Shown here piece by piece: positions 4,849-43,394 of a DNA stretch of 64,000 nt; positions within the stretch are counted from its first letter, which is position 1, and the number at the start of each line of letters is the position of its first letter. The notes under the pieces are model-generated. The model made no database searches, was not told where the DNA came from, and was given only the letters and a program-made list of their open reading frames with translations. The DNA lies in NCBI GenBank assembly GCA_963745075.1, contig CAVUWV010000024.1:64001-128000 (forward strand), read 5' to 3'. Source of the stretch: Candidatus Hydrogenedentota bacterium (lineage in GTDB: Bacteria > Hydrogenedentota > Hydrogenedentia > Hydrogenedentales > SLHB01). The position numbers and the translations under genes were made by a program.

Positions 4849-5935
4849 ATGGAACATTTAACCGTCAGGTTGGGTAATCGATCGTACCCGATCTATCTAG
4901 GTGAAGGGGCCCTCAGCGCCTTGCCCCGCGTGCTATCGGATTTGAGCGCGTACGGAACCGTTGCTATTGTCACAGACACGAATGTGGCGCCCTTGTACGC
5001 TGACAAGATTGCGGACTTGGTTCAGCAGTCGGATATATCGGCAAAGGTCTGTACCATTCCTGCCGGCGAAGAACATAAACGCATCGAACAGATCGACTAC
5101 TTGTGCGGGGAATTCCTGGCCGCGGGCCTCGATCGGTCGAGCGTTGTCGTAGCGCTGGGGGGGGGCGTGGTAGGCGATGTGACCGGCTACGCGGCGGCGT
5201 CCTACATGCGCGGCGTCCGGCACGTGCAGGTACCGACCACGATTGTGGCGCAGGTGGACAGCAGCGTAGGCGGGAAGACGGGTGTGAATCATGCGCGCGC
5301 CAAAAACATCATCGGCGCGTTCCATCAGCCTTCGGCGGTGGTGGTCGATCTGCGTCTTGCTCAAGACGCTGCCGGAACGGGAACTGCGCGCTGGCCTCGC
5401 CGAGGTCATAAAGCACGGCGTGATTGCGGATGAAATCCTCTTTACGTATCTGGAAGAACAAGTGGAATCCATCCTTGCGGGTGCCTTACACGCCCTTCAG
5501 TATCCGATTAAGCGATCCTGCGAAATTAAGTCGACCATCGTGGCCGCTGACGAGCGGGAACATGGGCTCCGTGCGAATCTGAACTACGGACATACCTTCG
5601 GTCACGGGATCGAGGCCGCTTCGGACTACACGAAGTTTCTCCATGGGGAAGCAGTCGCCTTGGGTATGGTTGCCGCGGGTGCGCTTGCGAAAGATCTTGG
5701 TTTGGTGGGCGACGCCTTTGTGGACCGTCAACGCGCATGCATCGCCTCCTACGGACTTCCGGTGTCATGGCCGGACATCCCCGTGGATCGCGTACTCGAT
5801 GCCATGCGGCATGATAAGAAGGTTCGCGCGGGCGCCATGAAGTTTGTCGTTGCGGACGAGATCGGCCATGTCGTGCAACGGACGGAAGTGACGACCGGCC
5901 AGGCGCGAGCTGCACTCGAAACCTTACGCGGATAA
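4849..5935 (+). CDS. aroB: 3-dehydroquinate synthase, split by a +1 frameshift at ~5350-5358
   Basis: ALGGGVVGD, VPTT, DSSVGGKTGVN and KNIIGAFHQP in ORF 4849; LKTLPERE..AGLAEVIKHG, LNYGHTFGH, LHGEAVALG and DKK in ORF 5291. Confidence 0.93.
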
Positions 5936-9506: not shown

Positions 9507-10463
9507 CTATACACGCGGCGCCAATAGCAGCCCACCTACCAGTACCACATCTTCGCCGAGCGCGCACGGCACGATTTCATATCGTTGCCGATAGGGTCCA
9601 AACACGATATCGTCCACGTGCTTCCGGATTGGGTCTAACAGAATATCGCCCATGAGACTGACGCCTCCGCCCAGTGCGATCCGCTCCGGATGGATCAGCG
9701 TAATGACGTTGGACAACGCAATGGCGACCGTTCTCGCTATTCGGTCGATTGCTCTGGTCGCAACGGTATCGCCTTCGCGTGCGGCATCCGCCAGTAAACC
9801 GCAGGTGATTCTCGACGGATCGTCATTCGCCAGCCGGGCCAGGGGCGTGCCGGGTTCGAGCGACGAAAGTGCGCGCAGACGTTTCTCGATGGACCATCCC
9901 GAACACAAATTCTCCAGCCTTTCCACCGCGCCAGGTGTGGACGCGGTAAAGTCCGGCACATAGGTGTGACCGATCTCCGCCGCGCCAAAGCCCTGTCCAT
10001 CATGAAGCCGCCCGTCGATCACAAAGGCGCCCCCAATGCCGCTACCGATGTTCATGTAACAGAAAGTTCCGGTGCCTTTCCCCGCGCCGCAGCAGTACTC
10101 CGCCCAACCCGCCGCGTTTGCGTCGTTCGCTACCACCGTCGGCATACCGAACCGATCTTCGAACCATTGCTTCAACGGAAAGCCTGACCATCCACCGACT
10201 TGATGGGATACCAAAGCCGTTCCCGCCAGGCTGTCCACCGGCCCGCCGAACCCGATGCCCATGCCGGATACCTTCCAACCCTCCGCTTGGGCTTGTGATT
10301 GCAGCCGGGGGACCGATTCCTCGAACCAGGTGAGAATGGATTCGGCTCCTGCTGCAGAATTAGCTGCACCCCGTTCCTTTTCTAAGATTTCCCCGTCGGC
10401 TCGGCCTAGGGCGGCTTGAAGCTTGGTGCCTCCGATTTCGATTGCCAGTACCGTGTTGCTCAT
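9507..10463 (-). CDS. ROK family sugar kinase
   Basis: EIGGTK, GIGFGGP, NDANAA, GSGIGG, AEIGHT and GGGV motifs. Confidence 0.92.
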   Translation of the reverse strand: MSNTVLAIEIGGTKLQAALGRADGEILEKERGAANSAAGAESILTWFEESVPRLQSQAQAEGWKVSGMGIGFGGPVDSLAGTALVSHQVGGWSGFPLKQWFEDRFGMPTVVANDANAAGWAEYCCGAGKGTGTFCYMNIGSGIGGAFVIDGRLHDGQGFGAAEIGHTYVPDFTASTPGAVERLENLCSGWSIEKRLRALSSLEPGTPLARLANDDPSRITCGLLADAAREGDTVATRAIDRIARTVAIALSNVITLIHPERIALGGGVSLMGDILLDPIRKHVDDIVFGPYRQRYEIVPCALGEDVVLVGGLLLAPRV

Positions 10464-10483
10464 GACAAGTCCAAGCCGGTTGG

Positions 10484-11677
10484 CTACGCGCTCAGTATGT
10501 CGGATTTGACCACGGACGTTGGCCGGCCAAGCACGGCGGCGAGGTCAACCTCGGGCAACGACGGCGTTGCGGTGACTATCTCACTCTTCCCATCTGCGGA
10601 CAGGATAAACGTATCCTCGGACTTTACGCCCACGCCGGACGGATTCCACGCAAACGCGTGACCAAACGATACATCGACGCCCGAGATCTCCTTGACCGCT
10701 TTGGACCATGCCTTGTCGAGGATTGGAAATGGTTCGCCCGGCGCGCCCTTGGCCGTGCGGGCCGAGTATCCGGTGGTTCCGCCTTGGTGATGGTTGTGCC
10801 ATTCGTTTTCCGGGAATCCCATATCCTTGTACGCGGCACGACAGGCGTCGAACACATCCCCCAACGTTTTGCCCGGCTCGGACGCCTCCTGCATGAGGGC
10901 ATCGACACCACAGACCCGCCGATACGCATCGTGAATGTTTACCGGAATGTCGCTAACCTGTTTGAACCGGGTGATGGACGCGATCAGCCCTTCGCGGAAA
11001 AAGCAGCCCACCACCATGACGTAGCCTTTGACCGTCTTCTCTTTGAGCGAACCGGTCGTAAGCGGTCCCGCCGTGGGCAAGGGGTGACGGAACTGGGCAA
11101 TCCGATCGTCTGCCGCGATCAGCGCCACGGGAACCATGCACCGTCGTTTTGCGCCCTCCGCAATCAGGACCGCAGCGATATCTGCCTCCGCCATGCCCGG
11201 TTTGACGGCGTCGAGTGTGGCCATCATCGCATCCGCGGCCAAGGCGCCAAGCTTGCGGTATTTCTCCATCTCGCCTGGCGCCAACAAGGCGCGAAGGTAC
11301 GTGAGATCCTCATTCACGTTTGCCCCAAGTGCCCCGTCGTCGGACACGAGATTCCCCGTGAATTCCTTCCTCACGACGCTGGCAGGGTCGTTCGCAAACC
11401 ACAGGAAGTTCTTGGAATCGCATCCCAGGGCCTGGAGTTCCTCCGCCATGATGCGCGATTCTTCGATGGTATTGCCGACGAAATAAACGCTTCCATCTTT
11501 TGTCACGAATAATGAATTCGCACCCAAATCGGATGCGAAGTTTACGTAATTCCGCTTTCCGCCGGTCGCCATGGCAAAGTTATCGACCCGGGACAGCAAA
11601 ATGCCATCGTATCCTCGCTCCCGGAGAAAGGCCTGGAGCAACGCCACACGTACCTGAAATAGTTCGACCTCCGTCAT
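10484..11677 (-). CDS. M24 (pita-bread) fold protein, HHQGG/WNPS type; catalytic role uncertain
   Basis: Creatinase-like N-domain, then ASITR, HHQGG, AWNPS and KSED at the M24 motif positions; GGAGAAGG RBS before ATG 11677. Confidence 0.75.
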   Translation of the reverse strand: MTEVELFQVRVALLQAFLRERGYDGILLSRVDNFAMATGGKRNYVNFASDLGANSLFVTKDGSVYFVGNTIEESRIMAEELQALGCDSKNFLWFANDPASVVRKEFTGNLVSDDGALGANVNEDLTYLRALLAPGEMEKYRKLGALAADAMMATLDAVKPGMAEADIAAVLIAEGAKRRCMVPVALIAADDRIAQFRHPLPTAGPLTTGSLKEKTVKGYVMVVGCFFREGLIASITRFKQVSDIPVNIHDAYRRVCGVDALMQEASEPGKTLGDVFDACRAAYKDMGFPENEWHNHHQGGTTGYSARTAKGAPGEPFPILDKAWSKAVKEISGVDVSFGHAFAWNPSGVGVKSEDTFILSADGKSEIVTATPSLPEVDLAAVLGRPTSVVKSDILSA

Positions 11678-11722
11678 GATTCCTTCTCCCAATCCGCTAT
11701 TCCCGGAACAGTGTTCCAGCCT

Positions 11723-12778
11723 TCAGTCGCCGACCCGCTTGAAGGCGCTAAGCGTACGCCACGCACAATTCTCCCACGTATATTCCATTGCCCGCCGCCG
11801 CGAAAACGCAACCTGCTGCGCCCGTTCCTGAGGAGTTTCCTGAAGCACGCGGCGAATCGCCCCGATCAAAGAAGCGGGGTTCTCGTGATTATAGTAGACC
11901 GGGAAGTTCCCCGCGATCTCGGGAATTCCGCCAACTCGCGGCGTAATGACCCGCGCGCCCCCACGCATCGCCTCGAGAATCGTAATGCATGCCCCCTCGT
12001 GCAAGGACGTGCAAATGAATGCGTCGCTGTGTTGCATGAGACCCGCTATCTGCGGAATGGGGCAGCGATGAATGCGCAGCACCCGCGACCCCCAGTCGTC
12101 CGGCTCGGTATGGTCCGGGCGGCCCAGCACCACGAGATGATGCGGAATCTCGTCTTTCAGGCGCTCGAACGCTTCCAGTAAGAATTGCAGGTGTCCGCGA
12201 TGGCGCGTATCTCCGGACGTGATCAAGTAGGGTTGTTCGGCGATGGTGTCATGCGCAACGTCCAATCCAGGGTCCGCGCCGGGCGGCGCCACCACGACCC
12301 GGTCCATGGGCACGCTCAAAAGACTCAACAACTGTCTGCGCAAACACTCCGACGGGGCGACAAAGACTTGGGCCCGTGTGGAGATTCGTTTCATGTCGCG
12401 AACCAGCGGAGGCGTCCGCCACCCGCCGGCTTTTCCCGCTTGCTCGAGGAAGCTTAAGTCCAGCGCGTAAGGCACCACCGGTACCGCGGTGACCATGCCT
12501 GCCGTTTGCAGCGGCGTATACACCAGATCGACTTGAGCGCGCTTTGCCGCGCGATCCAGATTCTTCTCGATAGGGGCATCGTCAATTGCAGCCGATCCGG
12601 GTTTGCCCACAAACACCCGATCCCATCCGGGATACGACTCGTGATTGTTCGCATCCGTGAAGAGGGTGAAATGACTGTCCGGCTGGATGTCTCGCATCCG
12701 GACCAGGACATTCCGGAGGTACACGTCCTCTTCGTCATACCCGGGTTCCAATGTCGTAATATTCACGCCCACGCGCAT
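11723..12778 (-). CDS. GT4 family glycosyltransferase (GT-B fold)
   Basis: VAPSE, PPGAD, 'SLHEGACITILEAM' (ExxxxxxxE motif), GGIPEI and YTWE. Confidence 0.85.
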   Translation of the reverse strand: MRVGVNITTLEPGYDEEDVYLRNVLVRMRDIQPDSHFTLFTDANNHESYPGWDRVFVGKPGSAAIDDAPIEKNLDRAAKRAQVDLVYTPLQTAGMVTAVPVVPYALDLSFLEQAGKAGGWRTPPLVRDMKRISTRAQVFVAPSECLRRQLLSLLSVPMDRVVVAPPGADPGLDVAHDTIAEQPYLITSGDTRHRGHLQFLLEAFERLKDEIPHHLVVLGRPDHTEPDDWGSRVLRIHRCPIPQIAGLMQHSDAFICTSLHEGACITILEAMRGGARVITPRVGGIPEIAGNFPVYYNHENPASLIGAIRRVLQETPQERAQQVAFSRRRAMEYTWENCAWRTLSAFKRVGD

Positions 12779-12811
12779 ACGTTTACCTCTTCGAAACAGG
12801 ACAGATTCCGG

Positions 12812-13204
12812 CTACTTGACGTAACCGAGGTGGGCCAACGGTTGGGGAATGGTATTCTTTCTGGAACCACTCATGACGCGATCTCGATCGCCGACACCGG
12901 CGCTCACCAGGGCAGCCAATGCCCGCTCCGCTGCTGCGGAAATCGGATCGGACGGGTCAACTTCGTGCACCACGGCATCGCAATCCGGCAACGGCACCGT
13001 TCCCGTAGTAACAAGCACGATAACACCGTTGCGGATCAAAACCTCGCAAACCAGAGTCCGGGACGTCAACGAACCAATTCGCTGCGCGAGCCGCTCATCG
13101 ACGATTTCCACCCGGTGTCCGACGGCTACCAGTCGATCCCCGAGTTCCCGTGCCACAGCGACGGTGTCGTTTCCCTGCAAATATATGGTCAGCCCGTTTC
13201 TCAT
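12812..13204 (-). CDS. Reduced adenylyl-sulfate kinase (CysC)-like protein lacking Walker A, 130 aa
   Basis: GLTIYLQG..VAREL..RL...GHRVEIVD...VCEVL.RNGVIV...LGYV follows the CysC scaffold but has no GxxGxGK(S/T); GGAG RBS; lies just downstream of sat. Confidence 0.6.
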   Translation of the reverse strand: MRNGLTIYLQGNDTVAVARELGDRLVAVGHRVEIVDERLAQRIGSLTSRTLVCEVLIRNGVIVLVTTGTVPLPDCDAVVHEVDPSDPISAAAERALAALVSAGVGDRDRVMSGSRKNTIPQPLAHLGYVK

Positions 13205-13311
13205 TCCGCTTACTCCATCGCAATGCGAATTCGTTTGCCACAGCGTCACGCCGATCCATCGGGCTCGCCGCCGGGTCCGTCCGCCTGCGCGCTGTTTCTG
13301 CGCAGACCGCC

Positions 13312-13320
13312 ATTCTACCA
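13312..13320 (-). promoter_or_regulatory. Extended -10 element (TGGTAGAAT), putative promoter for cysC-like/GT4/M24/ROK
   Basis: Minus strand TG-G-TAGAAT about 108 nt upstream of ATG 13204; no clear -35. Confidence 0.4.
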
Positions 13321-13547
13321 AAACTATGGACGGAAAACGCACACGAAACTTCTACAGAATTCGGCTAAACGCGCGAAATTGTAGAGTTTGTTGCGCTTAC
13401 AACGGAATTCTCACACGCACCGGACGTTGGATCCGTAACCCAAATCCGCTCTATGGTTTCGCACGTCGATCCGAGCACGTTGTGGTTTCGCAGAACGCGT
13501 GTGGGAATTCCTCAGCAATGCGCCCACGGAAATTTTCCAAATGCGGA

Positions 13548-14936
13548 TTACAGCGCCCGGCCCTGAAAATCCGAAGGAATTGGCGCGTTCAAAAGGTTCA
13601 GAATCGTTGGCGCGATGTCCATAATCTGGAGGTCCGATCGCTCCTCACCACCTCGGCCGGTCCGGTCGTCCATTACAAAAATGCCGTCGAAGTCGTGATT
13701 GGCGTCATCCGGACCCGTGTCATTGCGCTCCGCAAAAATGTGTTGGACGCCCACCGTCCCCAACGCTCGGTAAGAGAGATCGCCAAAATATACAATCAGA
13801 TCCGGTGGTACGCCATTTGTTTTCCGGTAGTGGCGTTCCGGTATCAACACGCGGTTGTTCATCGGGGTGCCGTCTGGGCCCGCCATCGATTCGAGTCTCA
13901 ATGCGAGTTCCGCGCGGCGTTGTTCATATTCCGGCTTTGGAATGATGCCCCGGGGTTCGCGGCCCGAAACATTCATGAAAACGCGGGCGCAATAACCACC
14001 GGTGCTCCAGGCTCGGGTGTGATCCCAGTCGATGGTGCAGTCTTCGATCCGGTAAGGTTGTTCCGGGACCGACTCGAGACGCAAGTACCCTTCGTTCATG
14101 AGCCACTGATTGACGTAAACGCCCCCGGCCATCGGTTTCGCGCCATGATCTGAAACGACGAGAACCGCCGTATCATGACCCGCGTGCGAAACAAGGTCGC
14201 CGATCCGCCGGTCGACAGATTCGTAGTATTCCCGAAACACGTTCTCGAAGCGGTTCCCGGGCTCGAACCGGGGATGATTGGGATCGCAGAACCGCCAGAA
14301 TCCATGGTGCAACCGGTCCATACCCATCTCGACGACCATAAAAAAGTCCCAAGGCTTGGTCTCCATCAAGTAGCGCGCCGTGTCGAACCGGTTTTCCATC
14401 AACCCATAGATTCGTTTCAACAGACCGGTTTTGTCGTCGGTTCGGAAATCGCCCACGTCGAGGTGATACGCGCCGACGGACCGGGCGATTTCCCTTTTGA
14501 GTGATTTCGGATAGGTGAACGCAACTTCGGTATCGGGGGCGAGGAACCCGGAGACGAGGCATCCGTTCAGCGGTTTCGGCGGATAGGTCTGCGGCACACC
14601 GACAACGACGGACTGCAAACCATGGCGGGACAGAATGTCCCATACCCGAGGTTCACGAATCGTTGTCGCGTCCAACGTCGCCAATGGGCCATACGTGTAG
14701 TCGCGGCGATTGCGGAACCCATAGCATCCCAGCGTTCCGGGGTCTTTGCTGGAGAGCATGGAGGCCCACGCCGGTACCGTAATGGGCGGGTCCGTGCTAC
14801 GAAGAAGGCCCCGGCAGCCGTTGGCTGCCAGGGCCTGAAGATTCGGAAGATCGAAGCGGTTCGGGCCGAAAACAAAGCGAGGCGCTGCACAATCGAGACC
14901 AATTACCAGGACACGTTTCACGCGTCCACCGGCCAT
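13548..14936 (-). CDS. Alkaline phosphatase superfamily phosphodiesterase/nucleotide pyrophosphatase-like protein (COG3379 type)
   Basis: IGLDCA, PPITVPAW (Thr nucleophile), DRLHH, VSDHG and ANH motifs; no signal peptide; ATG directly follows the sat TAA. Confidence 0.88.
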   Translation of the reverse strand: MAGGRVKRVLVIGLDCAAPRFVFGPNRFDLPNLQALAANGCRGLLRSTDPPITVPAWASMLSSKDPGTLGCYGFRNRRDYTYGPLATLDATTIREPRVWDILSRHGLQSVVVGVPQTYPPKPLNGCLVSGFLAPDTEVAFTYPKSLKREIARSVGAYHLDVGDFRTDDKTGLLKRIYGLMENRFDTARYLMETKPWDFFMVVEMGMDRLHHGFWRFCDPNHPRFEPGNRFENVFREYYESVDRRIGDLVSHAGHDTAVLVVSDHGAKPMAGGVYVNQWLMNEGYLRLESVPEQPYRIEDCTIDWDHTRAWSTGGYCARVFMNVSGREPRGIIPKPEYEQRRAELALRLESMAGPDGTPMNNRVLIPERHYRKTNGVPPDLIVYFGDLSYRALGTVGVQHIFAERNDTGPDDANHDFDGIFVMDDRTGRGGEERSDLQIMDIAPTILNLLNAPIPSDFQGRAL

Positions 14937-16091
14937 TTACTCAGCTCCCTGTGCCCACTTGATCAGTACTTTTGCGACTTCGGGACGGCTGAATTCCGCC
15001 GGCGGCATCTCACCCGCCTTCAGCATCTCTCGTACTTTCGTCCCGCTCAGGAATACGTGATGTTCCTTGTCGTGAGGGCACGTCTTGATGCTGGCCATAT
15101 TACCGCAACGCTTGCAGAAGAACGAGTGGTCGAAGAAAAGCGGTGTGATCCCGATTTCGTCGGGATCGAATTCGCTGAATATCTGATGGGCGTCGTAGGT
15201 TCCGTAAAACTTGCCTACACCCGCATGATCGCGCCCGACGATAAAGTGGGTGCAGCCGTAGTTCTTTCGAATGATGGCGTGCATGATGGCCTCTTTCGGG
15301 CCCGCATACCGCATGTTCACCGGCATCAGCGAAAGCATGGTATGGGCTTTCGGATAGTAATCTTCGATGATCGTCTGGTAACACTCCATCCGCACCGAGC
15401 CGGGAATATCGTCGCTCTTCGTAGTGCCCATCAGCGGGTGGATCAGGAGTCCGTCGCAAATCTCGAGTGCACATTTTGTGAGATACTCGTGCGCCCGGTG
15501 AATAGGATTGCGCGTTTGAAAGGCGACGATCCGGTTCCAGCCGTGATGCTCGAAGGCTGCCCGCGTTTGTTTCGGCGTGAGCGCGAATTCCTGGAACTCG
15601 ATCTCGCGCGCCTTCAATACGTCCAGGTCGCCCGCCAGGAACACATCACCGAGGCCCAGGGTATATGCGACACCGGGATGGGAGTCATCGGTCGTTCGAT
15701 ACGTCTTCTCCGCGATCTCCCGATGGTCGACGGTGAACTTCTCTGCCAAATGCAGGATCGCCGCGACTTCGCCGAGGTCGTCTTCAATAGCGATCTCTTT
15801 GTCGACCTCAAACTTCGCGGCCTCGTCGGAGCTGACCGACAGAAGTATCGGAATCGTCCACGGAATCCCCGGGCGCAGGTGCATCGTGTCCAGCACGCTT
15901 CGCGTCTCAGCTTCATTCATGAATCCCGTCAACGGACTGAAGATTCCCTTGCCGATGCAGTCAACGTCGAATGCCGCGTAGGTATCAACTTTGATCCGCG
16001 GCAAACTAGCGGCTTTGGCCTTGGCGGCTTCCAGAGCCGAGCCACTCAGAATGCGGTCCACAAGCTGACCGCCATGGGGTGCGATGGACAT
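14937..16091 (-). CDS. sat: Sulfate adenylyltransferase (ATP sulfurylase)
   Basis: PHGG.LV, SPLTGFM, FQTRNPIHRAHE, YAGPKEA, IVGRDHAGVG, LSGTKVR and FSRPEV. Confidence 0.97.
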   Translation of the reverse strand: MSIAPHGGQLVDRILSGSALEAAKAKAASLPRIKVDTYAAFDVDCIGKGIFSPLTGFMNEAETRSVLDTMHLRPGIPWTIPILLSVSSDEAAKFEVDKEIAIEDDLGEVAAILHLAEKFTVDHREIAEKTYRTTDDSHPGVAYTLGLGDVFLAGDLDVLKAREIEFQEFALTPKQTRAAFEHHGWNRIVAFQTRNPIHRAHEYLTKCALEICDGLLIHPLMGTTKSDDIPGSVRMECYQTIIEDYYPKAHTMLSLMPVNMRYAGPKEAIMHAIIRKNYGCTHFIVGRDHAGVGKFYGTYDAHQIFSEFDPDEIGITPLFFDHSFFCKRCGNMASIKTCPHDKEHHVFLSGTKVREMLKAGEMPPAEFSRPEVAKVLIKWAQGAE

Positions 16092-41867: not shown

Positions 41868-43394
41868 CTATCGTCGCTGCGTCTTCGTAAAGTCCATGTA
41901 ACGCGTCGAACCGACTTGGGATTCGTGGAGCGTGACCGAGTAGTCGCCATTCTTGGTATGGGCTTCGTAGGTTCGTGTTTCCACCGTCGGTGAGGGTGGG
42001 GCGTTGTCTGATTGCAACAGTTCGGTCAATACCCGGCCGTCCACACCGTCCGGCACCGGAACGCCGGCCAGCGCACAGATGGTTGGCATCATGTCAATGT
42101 TCCCCGTCGGCGTGTCGCTGACCTTACCTTGCTTGAATGCGGGCCCTGCAACGATCAGCGTGTTATGGATGTCAAAAGGACTGGAGGTCCCGTGGCCGGC
42201 CACGCCGGGCAAGTCGGTCGTTCCCTTCCATCCGTGCTCGTTTGCTGCGTCCGACCAGTTTGCGTCCACCAGAATGTCTGGCGCGCGATCGTGGTCGAAG
42301 TGGGCCAGTCCCAACGACAGTGTCCCGGGCACGCTGCCCTGGTCGCTGCTCGGTTCCTTTCCCCGCGTGAAAATGGCGCCCACCCAATCCGCGTGCTGCA
42401 AGACTTCGACAATGTTCTCGATGCGGCCCGCGTCGTGGTTTTCCACGTAGATACACCCGTCAACGACAATCACGTCCGTGGAACTCGCGCTGGCTTTCAA
42501 ACCCTTCTCCACCAGGAACGGCGCCAAACGAGTCTTGCCGGTATGCGTCGAGAATCCGTGATCGGACGTCACAATGATGTTGGTCTTGTCGAGAAGCTCC
42601 TCGTGCTCGAGCGCGCCCAGGATTCGCCCGATCTCCGAATCGACTGCCTTCAGCGCCTCGAGCGTCACCGGATCCCCGATCCCTTTGGCGTGCGCGGTAT
42701 GGTCCGGATCGGATAACCACATGGTTGTAACGTCCGGGTGAATCTTCTCCAGGCCAAGTTTCAGATACGCGTCGACGATCCAATGGTTCTGCTCCGCATT
42801 CGGGTATGCTTCCTCAGGCACGGGACCGAGGACCTCATCGATGTGCGCGTGCCGTGATTCAGGAAGCGTCAACTCCACGTTGATGATCCCCGCGCCTTTC
42901 GCGAGATTGTTCAACAGATACGCCGAGCCCGGCGAGCCGGAACTGACGGCGAGGAGCGTCTTGCCATTTTCTTCCAGGACTTCGCCCAGGGTCGGGCGCG
43001 TCACGAGCCGCTCATCGATGCCGTCGGCGATGCGCATGAGTTTGGTGGCGCTTCCGGTGCTCAAACCGCCGCTCGGTTCGACGCTGGGAAAATACACGGT
43101 ATTCCCCATGAGCCCGTGCTTGGCAGGGTAACAGCCCGTTGCGAGCGAGGTCGCATTCACCCGTGTGAGCGTGGGGAAGACGGAATGGTTGTTGGTGCAA
43201 ACGACGCCCCGTTGGCCCAGCGCGTACACGTTGGGCATGATTTCCGGCGTCACGTAGTCGGGCCGGCAGCCATCCAGCACGATTGTCAGCACGCGGTTTG
43301 CGCCGGGTGTTTGTGCGTTTGCCGGAGCGAATGCAAAATTCGAAACAGCGAGGAGTATTGCCGTAAGTACCGTGCGGCTCAGGAATCCATGCAT
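41868..43394 (-). CDS. Secreted alkaline phosphatase superfamily (nucleotide pyrophosphatase/phosphodiesterase-like) protein
   Basis: Signal peptide; VLDGCR, FPTLTRVN, PDHTAH, TSDHGF and GHG. Confidence 0.88.
   Translation of the reverse strand: MHGFLSRTVLTAILLAVSNFAFAPANAQTPGANRVLTIVLDGCRPDYVTPEIMPNVYALGQRGVVCTNNHSVFPTLTRVNATSLATGCYPAKHGLMGNTVYFPSVEPSGGLSTGSATKLMRIADGIDERLVTRPTLGEVLEENGKTLLAVSSGSPGSAYLLNNLAKGAGIINVELTLPESRHAHIDEVLGPVPEEAYPNAEQNHWIVDAYLKLGLEKIHPDVTTMWLSDPDHTAHAKGIGDPVTLEALKAVDSEIGRILGALEHEELLDKTNIIVTSDHGFSTHTGKTRLAPFLVEKGLKASASSTDVIVVDGCIYVENHDAGRIENIVEVLQHADWVGAIFTRGKEPSSDQGSVPGTLSLGLAHFDHDRAPDILVDANWSDAANEHGWKGTTDLPGVAGHGTSSPFDIHNTLIVAGPAFKQGKVSDTPTGNIDMMPTICALAGVPVPDGVDGRVLTELLQSDNAPPSPTVETRTYEAHTKNGDYSVTLHESQVGSTRYMDFTKTQRR

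Follow-up and report, generated by a model that had tools for sequence, protein, structure and literature searches.

The sat gene of the window, that is, the whole 64,000-nucleotide stretch of the Hydrogenedentota contig that was analyzed, and the gene of the alkaline phosphatase (AlkP) superfamily that directly follows it are a bacterial variant of a gene cluster that has been described from archaeal genomes. We lean towards the view that the AlkP enzyme acts here, as part of a variant of that archaeal cassette, as a pyrophosphate-removing helper of the ATP sulfurylase, and that the APS and PAPS derived from the Sat reaction are used elsewhere. Pyrophosphate hydrolysis is the only biochemistry for the gene in this slot in the available portions of the published work, and this interpretation did not figure in an earlier, sequence-only reading of the locus. 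The six minus-strand ORFs of that reading, with their lengths and intervening gaps (0, 343, 33, 45 and 20 bp), were borne out on recheck, and the features of the locus are as follows.

14937..16091, minus strand: sat, ATP sulfurylase, with profile scores over the curated cut-offs
13548..14936, minus strand: NPP-clade member of the AlkP superfamily ("type I"), cytoplasmic, assigned by PF01663, motifs and fold
13312..13320, minus strand: extended -10-like element TGGTAGAAT, a possible but weak internal promoter, noticed by eye in the 343-bp gap
12812..13204, minus strand: kinase-dead CysC descendant, lacking Walker A and lid
11723..12778, minus strand: GT4-family glycosyltransferase, a conserved neighbour of sulfate-activation genes across the order
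10484..11677, minus strand: M24 (pita-bread)-fold protein lacking two Asp metal ligands, a lineage-level neighbour
9507..10463, minus strand: ROK sugar kinase, a lineage-level neighbour outside the conserved unit

The Sat protein matched PRK04149 and TIGR00339 above the curated cut-offs (540/387 and 434/323 bits, respectively) and was the sole, single-copy ATP sulfurylase found in the assembly, in which a profile search matched no cysD-type PF01507 domain. The AlkP enzyme scored 135 bits with PF01663 (cut-off 23), and its residues D15, T53, D207, H211, D263, H264 and H414 were invariant in 30 close homologues. Among 150 representatives of the family, counting the rows that cover each column, the six metal ligands were kept in 89-97%, and position 53 was Thr in 109 and Ser in 12. 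The roles of these ligands, which we take to be those of the NPPs, were assigned from NPP motifs together with a profile search against the PDB. The top fold matches of the enzyme were NPPs; a search of the PDB with the single sequence gave 0 matches, and the profile search gave only weak matches to NPPs and the phosphonoacetate hydrolase PhnA. As judged from these residues, the enzyme keeps the two-metal, Thr-nucleophile site of the NPP type. It is 11-17% identical to Xanthomonas NPP (2GSN/7MW8), ENPP4-7 and PhnA, and differs from NPPs and PhnA in being cytoplasmic and in carrying the family-specific motifs GFRNR and DDANH. The family to which it belongs comprises 5,304 unannotated clusters at 50% identity (E<=1e-30), and a homologue from Pyrolobus fumarii is 39% identical to it. 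The closest homologues that carry a name come from Candidatus Hydrogenedentota, which places the genome most probably in this phylum. Another PF01663 gene is located in the window (41868-43394, minus strand), and its product has a signal-peptide-like N-terminus; since this product gave no blastp match to the enzyme encoded at 13548, it belongs to a different subfamily.

The published counterpart is the sulfate-activation cluster of the Thermococcales, represented by TON_1704-1707 of T. onnurineus and PYCH_17520-17560 of P. yayanosii (PMC8268124, PMC9653972, PMC4463584). In both arrangements, a gene for a cytoplasmic type I phosphodiesterase of the NPP family and a gene derived from cysC come after sat, and full-length identity and motifs place the same enzyme family in the same slot: the AlkP enzyme is 41-42% identical, over 461-465 residues, to the product of the same-slot gene in archaeal loci with the Thermococcales layout. 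Slot and family thus suggest that the AlkP gene is orthologous to TON_1705/PYCH_17550. As far as the available portions of these papers go, TON_1705 has been measured as a pyrophosphatase (Lee et al. 2009, via PMC8268124, PMC9653972 and PMC4463584), with a kcat about 14,000-fold under that of Ton1914 of the same strain (table in PMC9653972), and its pyrophosphate hydrolysis could be a promiscuous activity. The two arrangements also differ in several respects. The archaeal cassette contains an intact cysC, whereas the slot is occupied here by the dead kinase and the intact cysC lies on another contig (C1); the DHH pAp phosphatase, the CopG-like gene and TauE of the archaeal cassette are missing, with neither of the first two present among the ORFs of 9507-16091; and a GT4 gene follows here. 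A literature search, whose queries omitted the motif of the C-terminal tail described below, returned no paper on this tail or on the cassette in Hydrogenedentota.

The linkage of sat to the AlkP gene, proposed from the window alone, proved to be real and conserved in relatives, and in other lineages the two genes are fused. Of 101 phylum genomes, 47 contained the AlkP gene (E<=1e-60), which was found in 36/36 genomes of the window's own family, 8/9 of a second family, 0/53 of ten other families and 2/2 outlying genomes. By coordinates, sat and the AlkP gene are close neighbours in 37 of the 44 phylum genomes that contain both (35 within 800 bp and two with slightly wider gaps). The 47 phylum loci cut out around the AlkP gene, which come from 46 genomes and are in many cases bounded by contig ends, contained sat in 36 cases, GT4 in 32, the dead kinase in 25, the M24 gene in 10, ROK in 3 and an intact cysC in 3. 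Outside the phylum, the best 80 of 595 GTDB-wide loci yielded 61 distinct ones once 14 rows from within the phylum, and 5 more that were duplicates or probably also belonged to it, had been left out; sat and/or an intact cysC was present in 20 of the 61, and neither was found in the other 41 within the fetched DNA, which included some short contigs. Among the best 80 of 544 metagenome loci, retrieved with an archaeal-type alignment, 51 contained sat, 51 cysC and 50 a tail-bearing ORF. In 27 proteins chosen for length or context, Pfam revealed fusions of the types Sat-AlkP (4), AlkP-pyruvate kinase-Sat (1), CysC-AlkP (2), NTP transferase-AlkP (1), AlkP-pyruvate kinase (1), AlkP-GT2 (1) and AlkP-methyltransferase (1, of ambiguous type). 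The fusions with pyruvate kinase, one of which also includes Sat, and with the NTP transferase are those of P0216, P0255 and P0213.

The genome itself provides outlets for APS and PAPS. An intact stand-alone cysC (TIGR00455, 287 bits) is located on contig C1, cysH lies directly downstream of a sulfite reductase gene, and four P-loop sulfotransferase domains (PF13469) were detected. A search for aprA in the assembly, which is 89.7% complete, gave no match. The cysC, cysH, sulfite reductase and sulfotransferase genes contradict the proposal of a PAPS-independent module, and since Sat is the sole ATP sulfurylase and the pathway genes lie elsewhere, a complete pathway outside the locus explains sat. 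One of the PF13469 domains belongs to a PKS-type gene that begins at the right end of the window (63566 onward; G000:C24:127566-135155) and whose 2529-aa product likely consumes PAPS, since its last 800 residues comprise KR, carrier and sulfotransferase domains; another long ORF with a sulfotransferase domain lies at C31:329967. Across the 101 phylum genomes, sat was found in 86, cysC in 96, PF01507 in 72, PF13469 in 98, the membrane pyrophosphatase in 97 and the family I pyrophosphatase in 36; an intact cysC is present elsewhere in 34/36 genomes of the window's family. The stand-alone cysC often lies about 1-2 kb from a PF13469 sulfotransferase gene (for example in G089, G061, G025, G074, G014, G010, G058 and G099), unlike the cysC of the window's genome.

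The 130-aa CysC-like ORF had no match in the profile libraries, and the suspicion that it encodes a pseudo-kinase was confirmed by its relatives: 0 of 31 sequences contained the Walker A motif GxxxxGK[ST], and the proteins are about 70 residues shorter owing to deletion of the lid region. The model of a relative's copy (L029) supports an APS-kinase fold and descent from this kinase. The ORF is, therefore, a kinase-dead descendant of the operon's cysC. It differs from the domain resembling APS kinase at the C-terminus of fungal ATP sulfurylase (residues 393-511 of yeast 1J70) in being free-standing, of bacterial origin and provided with a tail. In relatives, the DTPxFAAEK motif of the dead kinase is invariant, and the protein also carries an acidic-helix tail with the motif RLxxLGY; both are degenerate in the window's protein, which ends in LAHLGYVK. 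Column identity of the dead kinase was 0.86 in the tail versus 0.50 in the core. The tail is a mobile module that occurs on intact CysC as well as on the dead kinase, in cis on AlkP enzymes (20 of the 150 representatives) and on small ORFs, including a small upstream ORF in the Thermococcales cassette, where the equivalent tail here is on the dead kinase. In an 11-row clade with a support of 97, to which the window belongs, the tail has degenerated or been lost; the catalytic residues of the window's AlkP enzyme are intact. A tail-versus-no-tail comparison of residues was considered as evidence of co-evolution and dropped, since clade membership confounded it (a quick tree gave 3 changes). All genomes of the genera in which the tail has decayed or been lost (g1, g3 and g22) carry a family I pyrophosphatase and most intact-tail members of the family do not, a pattern that probably reflects one event and is therefore not evidence of a link.

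An intact-motif tail protein adjoins GT4 in 7 of 27 cut-out genomes without a type I AlkP hit, belonging to five families. The tail thus has a role that does not require the type I enzyme and, because tail and GT4 persist without that enzyme, acting as a plug for it cannot be the tail's sole role. A type II AlkP paralogue (C11:41067-42647, locus L002) carries the RLxxLGY tail in cis and has a GT-like ORF directly after it. Type II AlkP was matched in 100/101 phylum genomes (E<=1e-25), with a few of these matches accounted for by the type I gene or further paralogues alone, and is thus near-universal in the phylum and commoner than the sat-linked type I enzyme.

The GT4 protein matched PF00534/PF13692 and contains the E-x7-E donor motif (E261 and E269); among 51 orthologues, position 261 is acidic in 49 and position 269 is Glu in 42. 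Its N-terminal GG is replaced by DE, and both the GG and the basic pyrophosphate-binding motif are variable across the 51 orthologues. That GT4 might be a pseudo-enzyme was rejected in view of its acidic donor motif, which is largely retained. GT4 was found in 89/101 phylum genomes, 49 of which lack a type I AlkP hit; in these 49, it lies within 3 kb of sat in 36 and of cysD in 9, beside cysC in 1 and elsewhere in 3, so that it accompanies sat, cysDN or cysC in 46/49. The cysD-cysN(C) genes beside GT4 were confirmed by NCBIfam in 3 of 9 cases and recognized by layout in the remainder, and eight of these nine genomes belong to one genus. An in-place replacement of sat could keep the GT4 neighbourhood without any functional link. 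In L248-L256, which are from genomes without a Sat match, cysD-cysN(C) is divergent and adjoins the same GT4, and the C-terminal kinase-like domain of CysN scored weakly against APS kinase models. The odd part of the system is this persistence of the dead kinase and GT4 beside sulfate-activating genes even where the AlkP gene was not found.

The M24 and ROK genes had been regarded as parts of one unit with the preceding genes, which the low occurrence of M24 (10/47 loci) and ROK (3/47, all from one genus) does not bear out. The M24-like ORF matched the M24 profile weakly, and two Asp metal ligands that are present in the PepP-like paralogue of the same genome are missing from it and from 17/17 orthologue rows. 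The ROK kinase scored 181 bits with PF00480, over the cut-off, and reached no substrate-specific NCBIfam cut-off. The idea that the two halves of the locus are separable did hold: five relatives have GT4-M24-ROK (G040 and G085) or GT4-M24 (G005, G047 and G002) at a distance from sat-AlkP, which makes the right-hand genes a block that can move. The promoter candidates proposed for each half fared less well, since a consensus scan of the minus strand was empty and only the weak element in the 343-bp gap was recognized by eye. The gap between the AlkP gene and the dead kinase is shorter than 50 bp in most relatives with a dead kinase and 100-400 bp in a few.

If the AlkP enzyme does serve Sat, Sat would produce APS and pyrophosphate, and the AlkP enzyme would hydrolyze the latter via a phospho-Thr53 intermediate, thereby pulling forward a Sat reaction that is unfavourable. 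The CysH and sulfite reductase encoded elsewhere would draw on the APS for assimilation, and the stand-alone CysC would turn it into the PAPS that ordinary P-loop sulfotransferases use. Within the operon, cysC would have lost its kinase residues, likely once the second cysC took over, and the dead kinase may persist in the majority of relatives because its C-terminal motifs, now decaying in the window's clade, serve a non-catalytic function; GT4 would be an old neighbour, and M24 and ROK passengers. Several observations weigh against this scheme. The genome already encodes two pyrophosphatases, one of family I and one of the membrane type, and across the phylum the family I enzyme showed no clean complementarity with the AlkP gene (families f3, f5 and f9 have neither). 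The low kcat of TON_1705, which in the part of PMC9653972 available is compatible with promiscuity, the orthology argument from slot and family, the 41 of 61 extra-phylum loci (from the best 80 of 595) with neither sat nor cysC in the fetched DNA, and the existence of CysC-AlkP and AlkP-GT2 fusions all count in the same direction, and pyrophosphate removal leaves unexplained the invariant Tyr of the tail and the type II paralogues beside glycosyltransferases. If the scheme holds, a pyrophosphatase coupled to Sat would be widespread within a very large unannotated family, a result of use for annotation and no surprise.

A doubtful alternative makes the AlkP enzyme a non-canonical sulfotransferase, in which the sulfuryl group of PAPS supplied by the stand-alone CysC would move to Thr53, then to the Tyr of RLxxLGY and finally to other AlkP or sulfatase-like enzymes that sulfate surface glycans. 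Agl30 and Agl31 (VNG1056C/VNG1057C) of Halobacterium salinarum, which share the AlkP-superfamily core, act as glycan sulfotransferases in vivo (PMC11980604) and are a precedent for the superfamily, but they are sulfatase-like and the window's enzyme is NPP-like. The mobility of the tail, its occurrence in cis and in 50 of the 80 archaeal-type loci, and its conservation above that of the kinase core fit such a relay, as do the glycosyltransferase, flippase and sulfatase-family genes of some extra-phylum loci and, in the portion of the literature available, the lack of an identified sulfotransferase in P. yayanosii. On the other hand, the tail has decayed in the window's own clade beside an intact AlkP site and persists in seven genomes without a type I hit, P-loop sulfotransferases occur in 98/101 phylum genomes, and pyrophosphate hydrolysis is the only activity measured for the slot in the available part of PMC9653972. 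A related and unlikely version takes ATP sulfurylase, the tail-bearing dead kinase and GT4, in place of sat-AlkP, as the conserved core of the phylum, with the dead kinase as a free-standing carrier and its invariant C-terminal Tyr taking the sulfuryl group from activated sulfate and passing it to type I or type II AlkP-fold enzymes, which would sulfate a GT4-built glycoconjugate without a P-loop sulfotransferase. Were the tail tyrosine to carry sulfate, a new chemistry of sulfation would extend over both bacteria and archaea.

NPPs cleave phosphosulfate anhydrides, and the NPP fold and metal site, together with the fusions of AlkP to both Sat and CysC, would also suit a phosphosulfatase that, gated by the tail protein, hydrolyzes APS/PAPS to cap or proof-read the activated-sulfate pool. 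This is quite unlikely, as an APS hydrolase fused to Sat would set up a futile cycle and the identity to solved NPPs is low. The interpretation originally given to the locus, a module that does without PAPS and whose AlkP enzyme moves sulfuryl or adenylyl groups from APS to a sugar built by GT4/ROK, draws on the sat-AlkP coupling next to a dead cysC and on the presence of GT4 in 32/47 phylum loci. At the genome level it is largely refuted and as a whole highly improbable: an intact cysC exists elsewhere in this genome and in nearly all those of the family, ROK is confined to one genus, GT4 stays with sat or cysDN where the AlkP gene was not found, GT4-M24-ROK stands apart from sat-AlkP in two relatives, and the partner outside the phylum is an intact cysC. 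From that interpretation, the sat-AlkP link, the pseudo-kinase and the separable halves are kept, and PAPS independence and the membership of ROK and M24 are given up.

Elsewhere in the window, a single gene on the plus strand (4849-5935), which is presumably 3-dehydroquinate synthase-like judging from its motifs, is split into the overlapping frames 4849-5433 and 5291-5935 by a frameshift or an assembly error.
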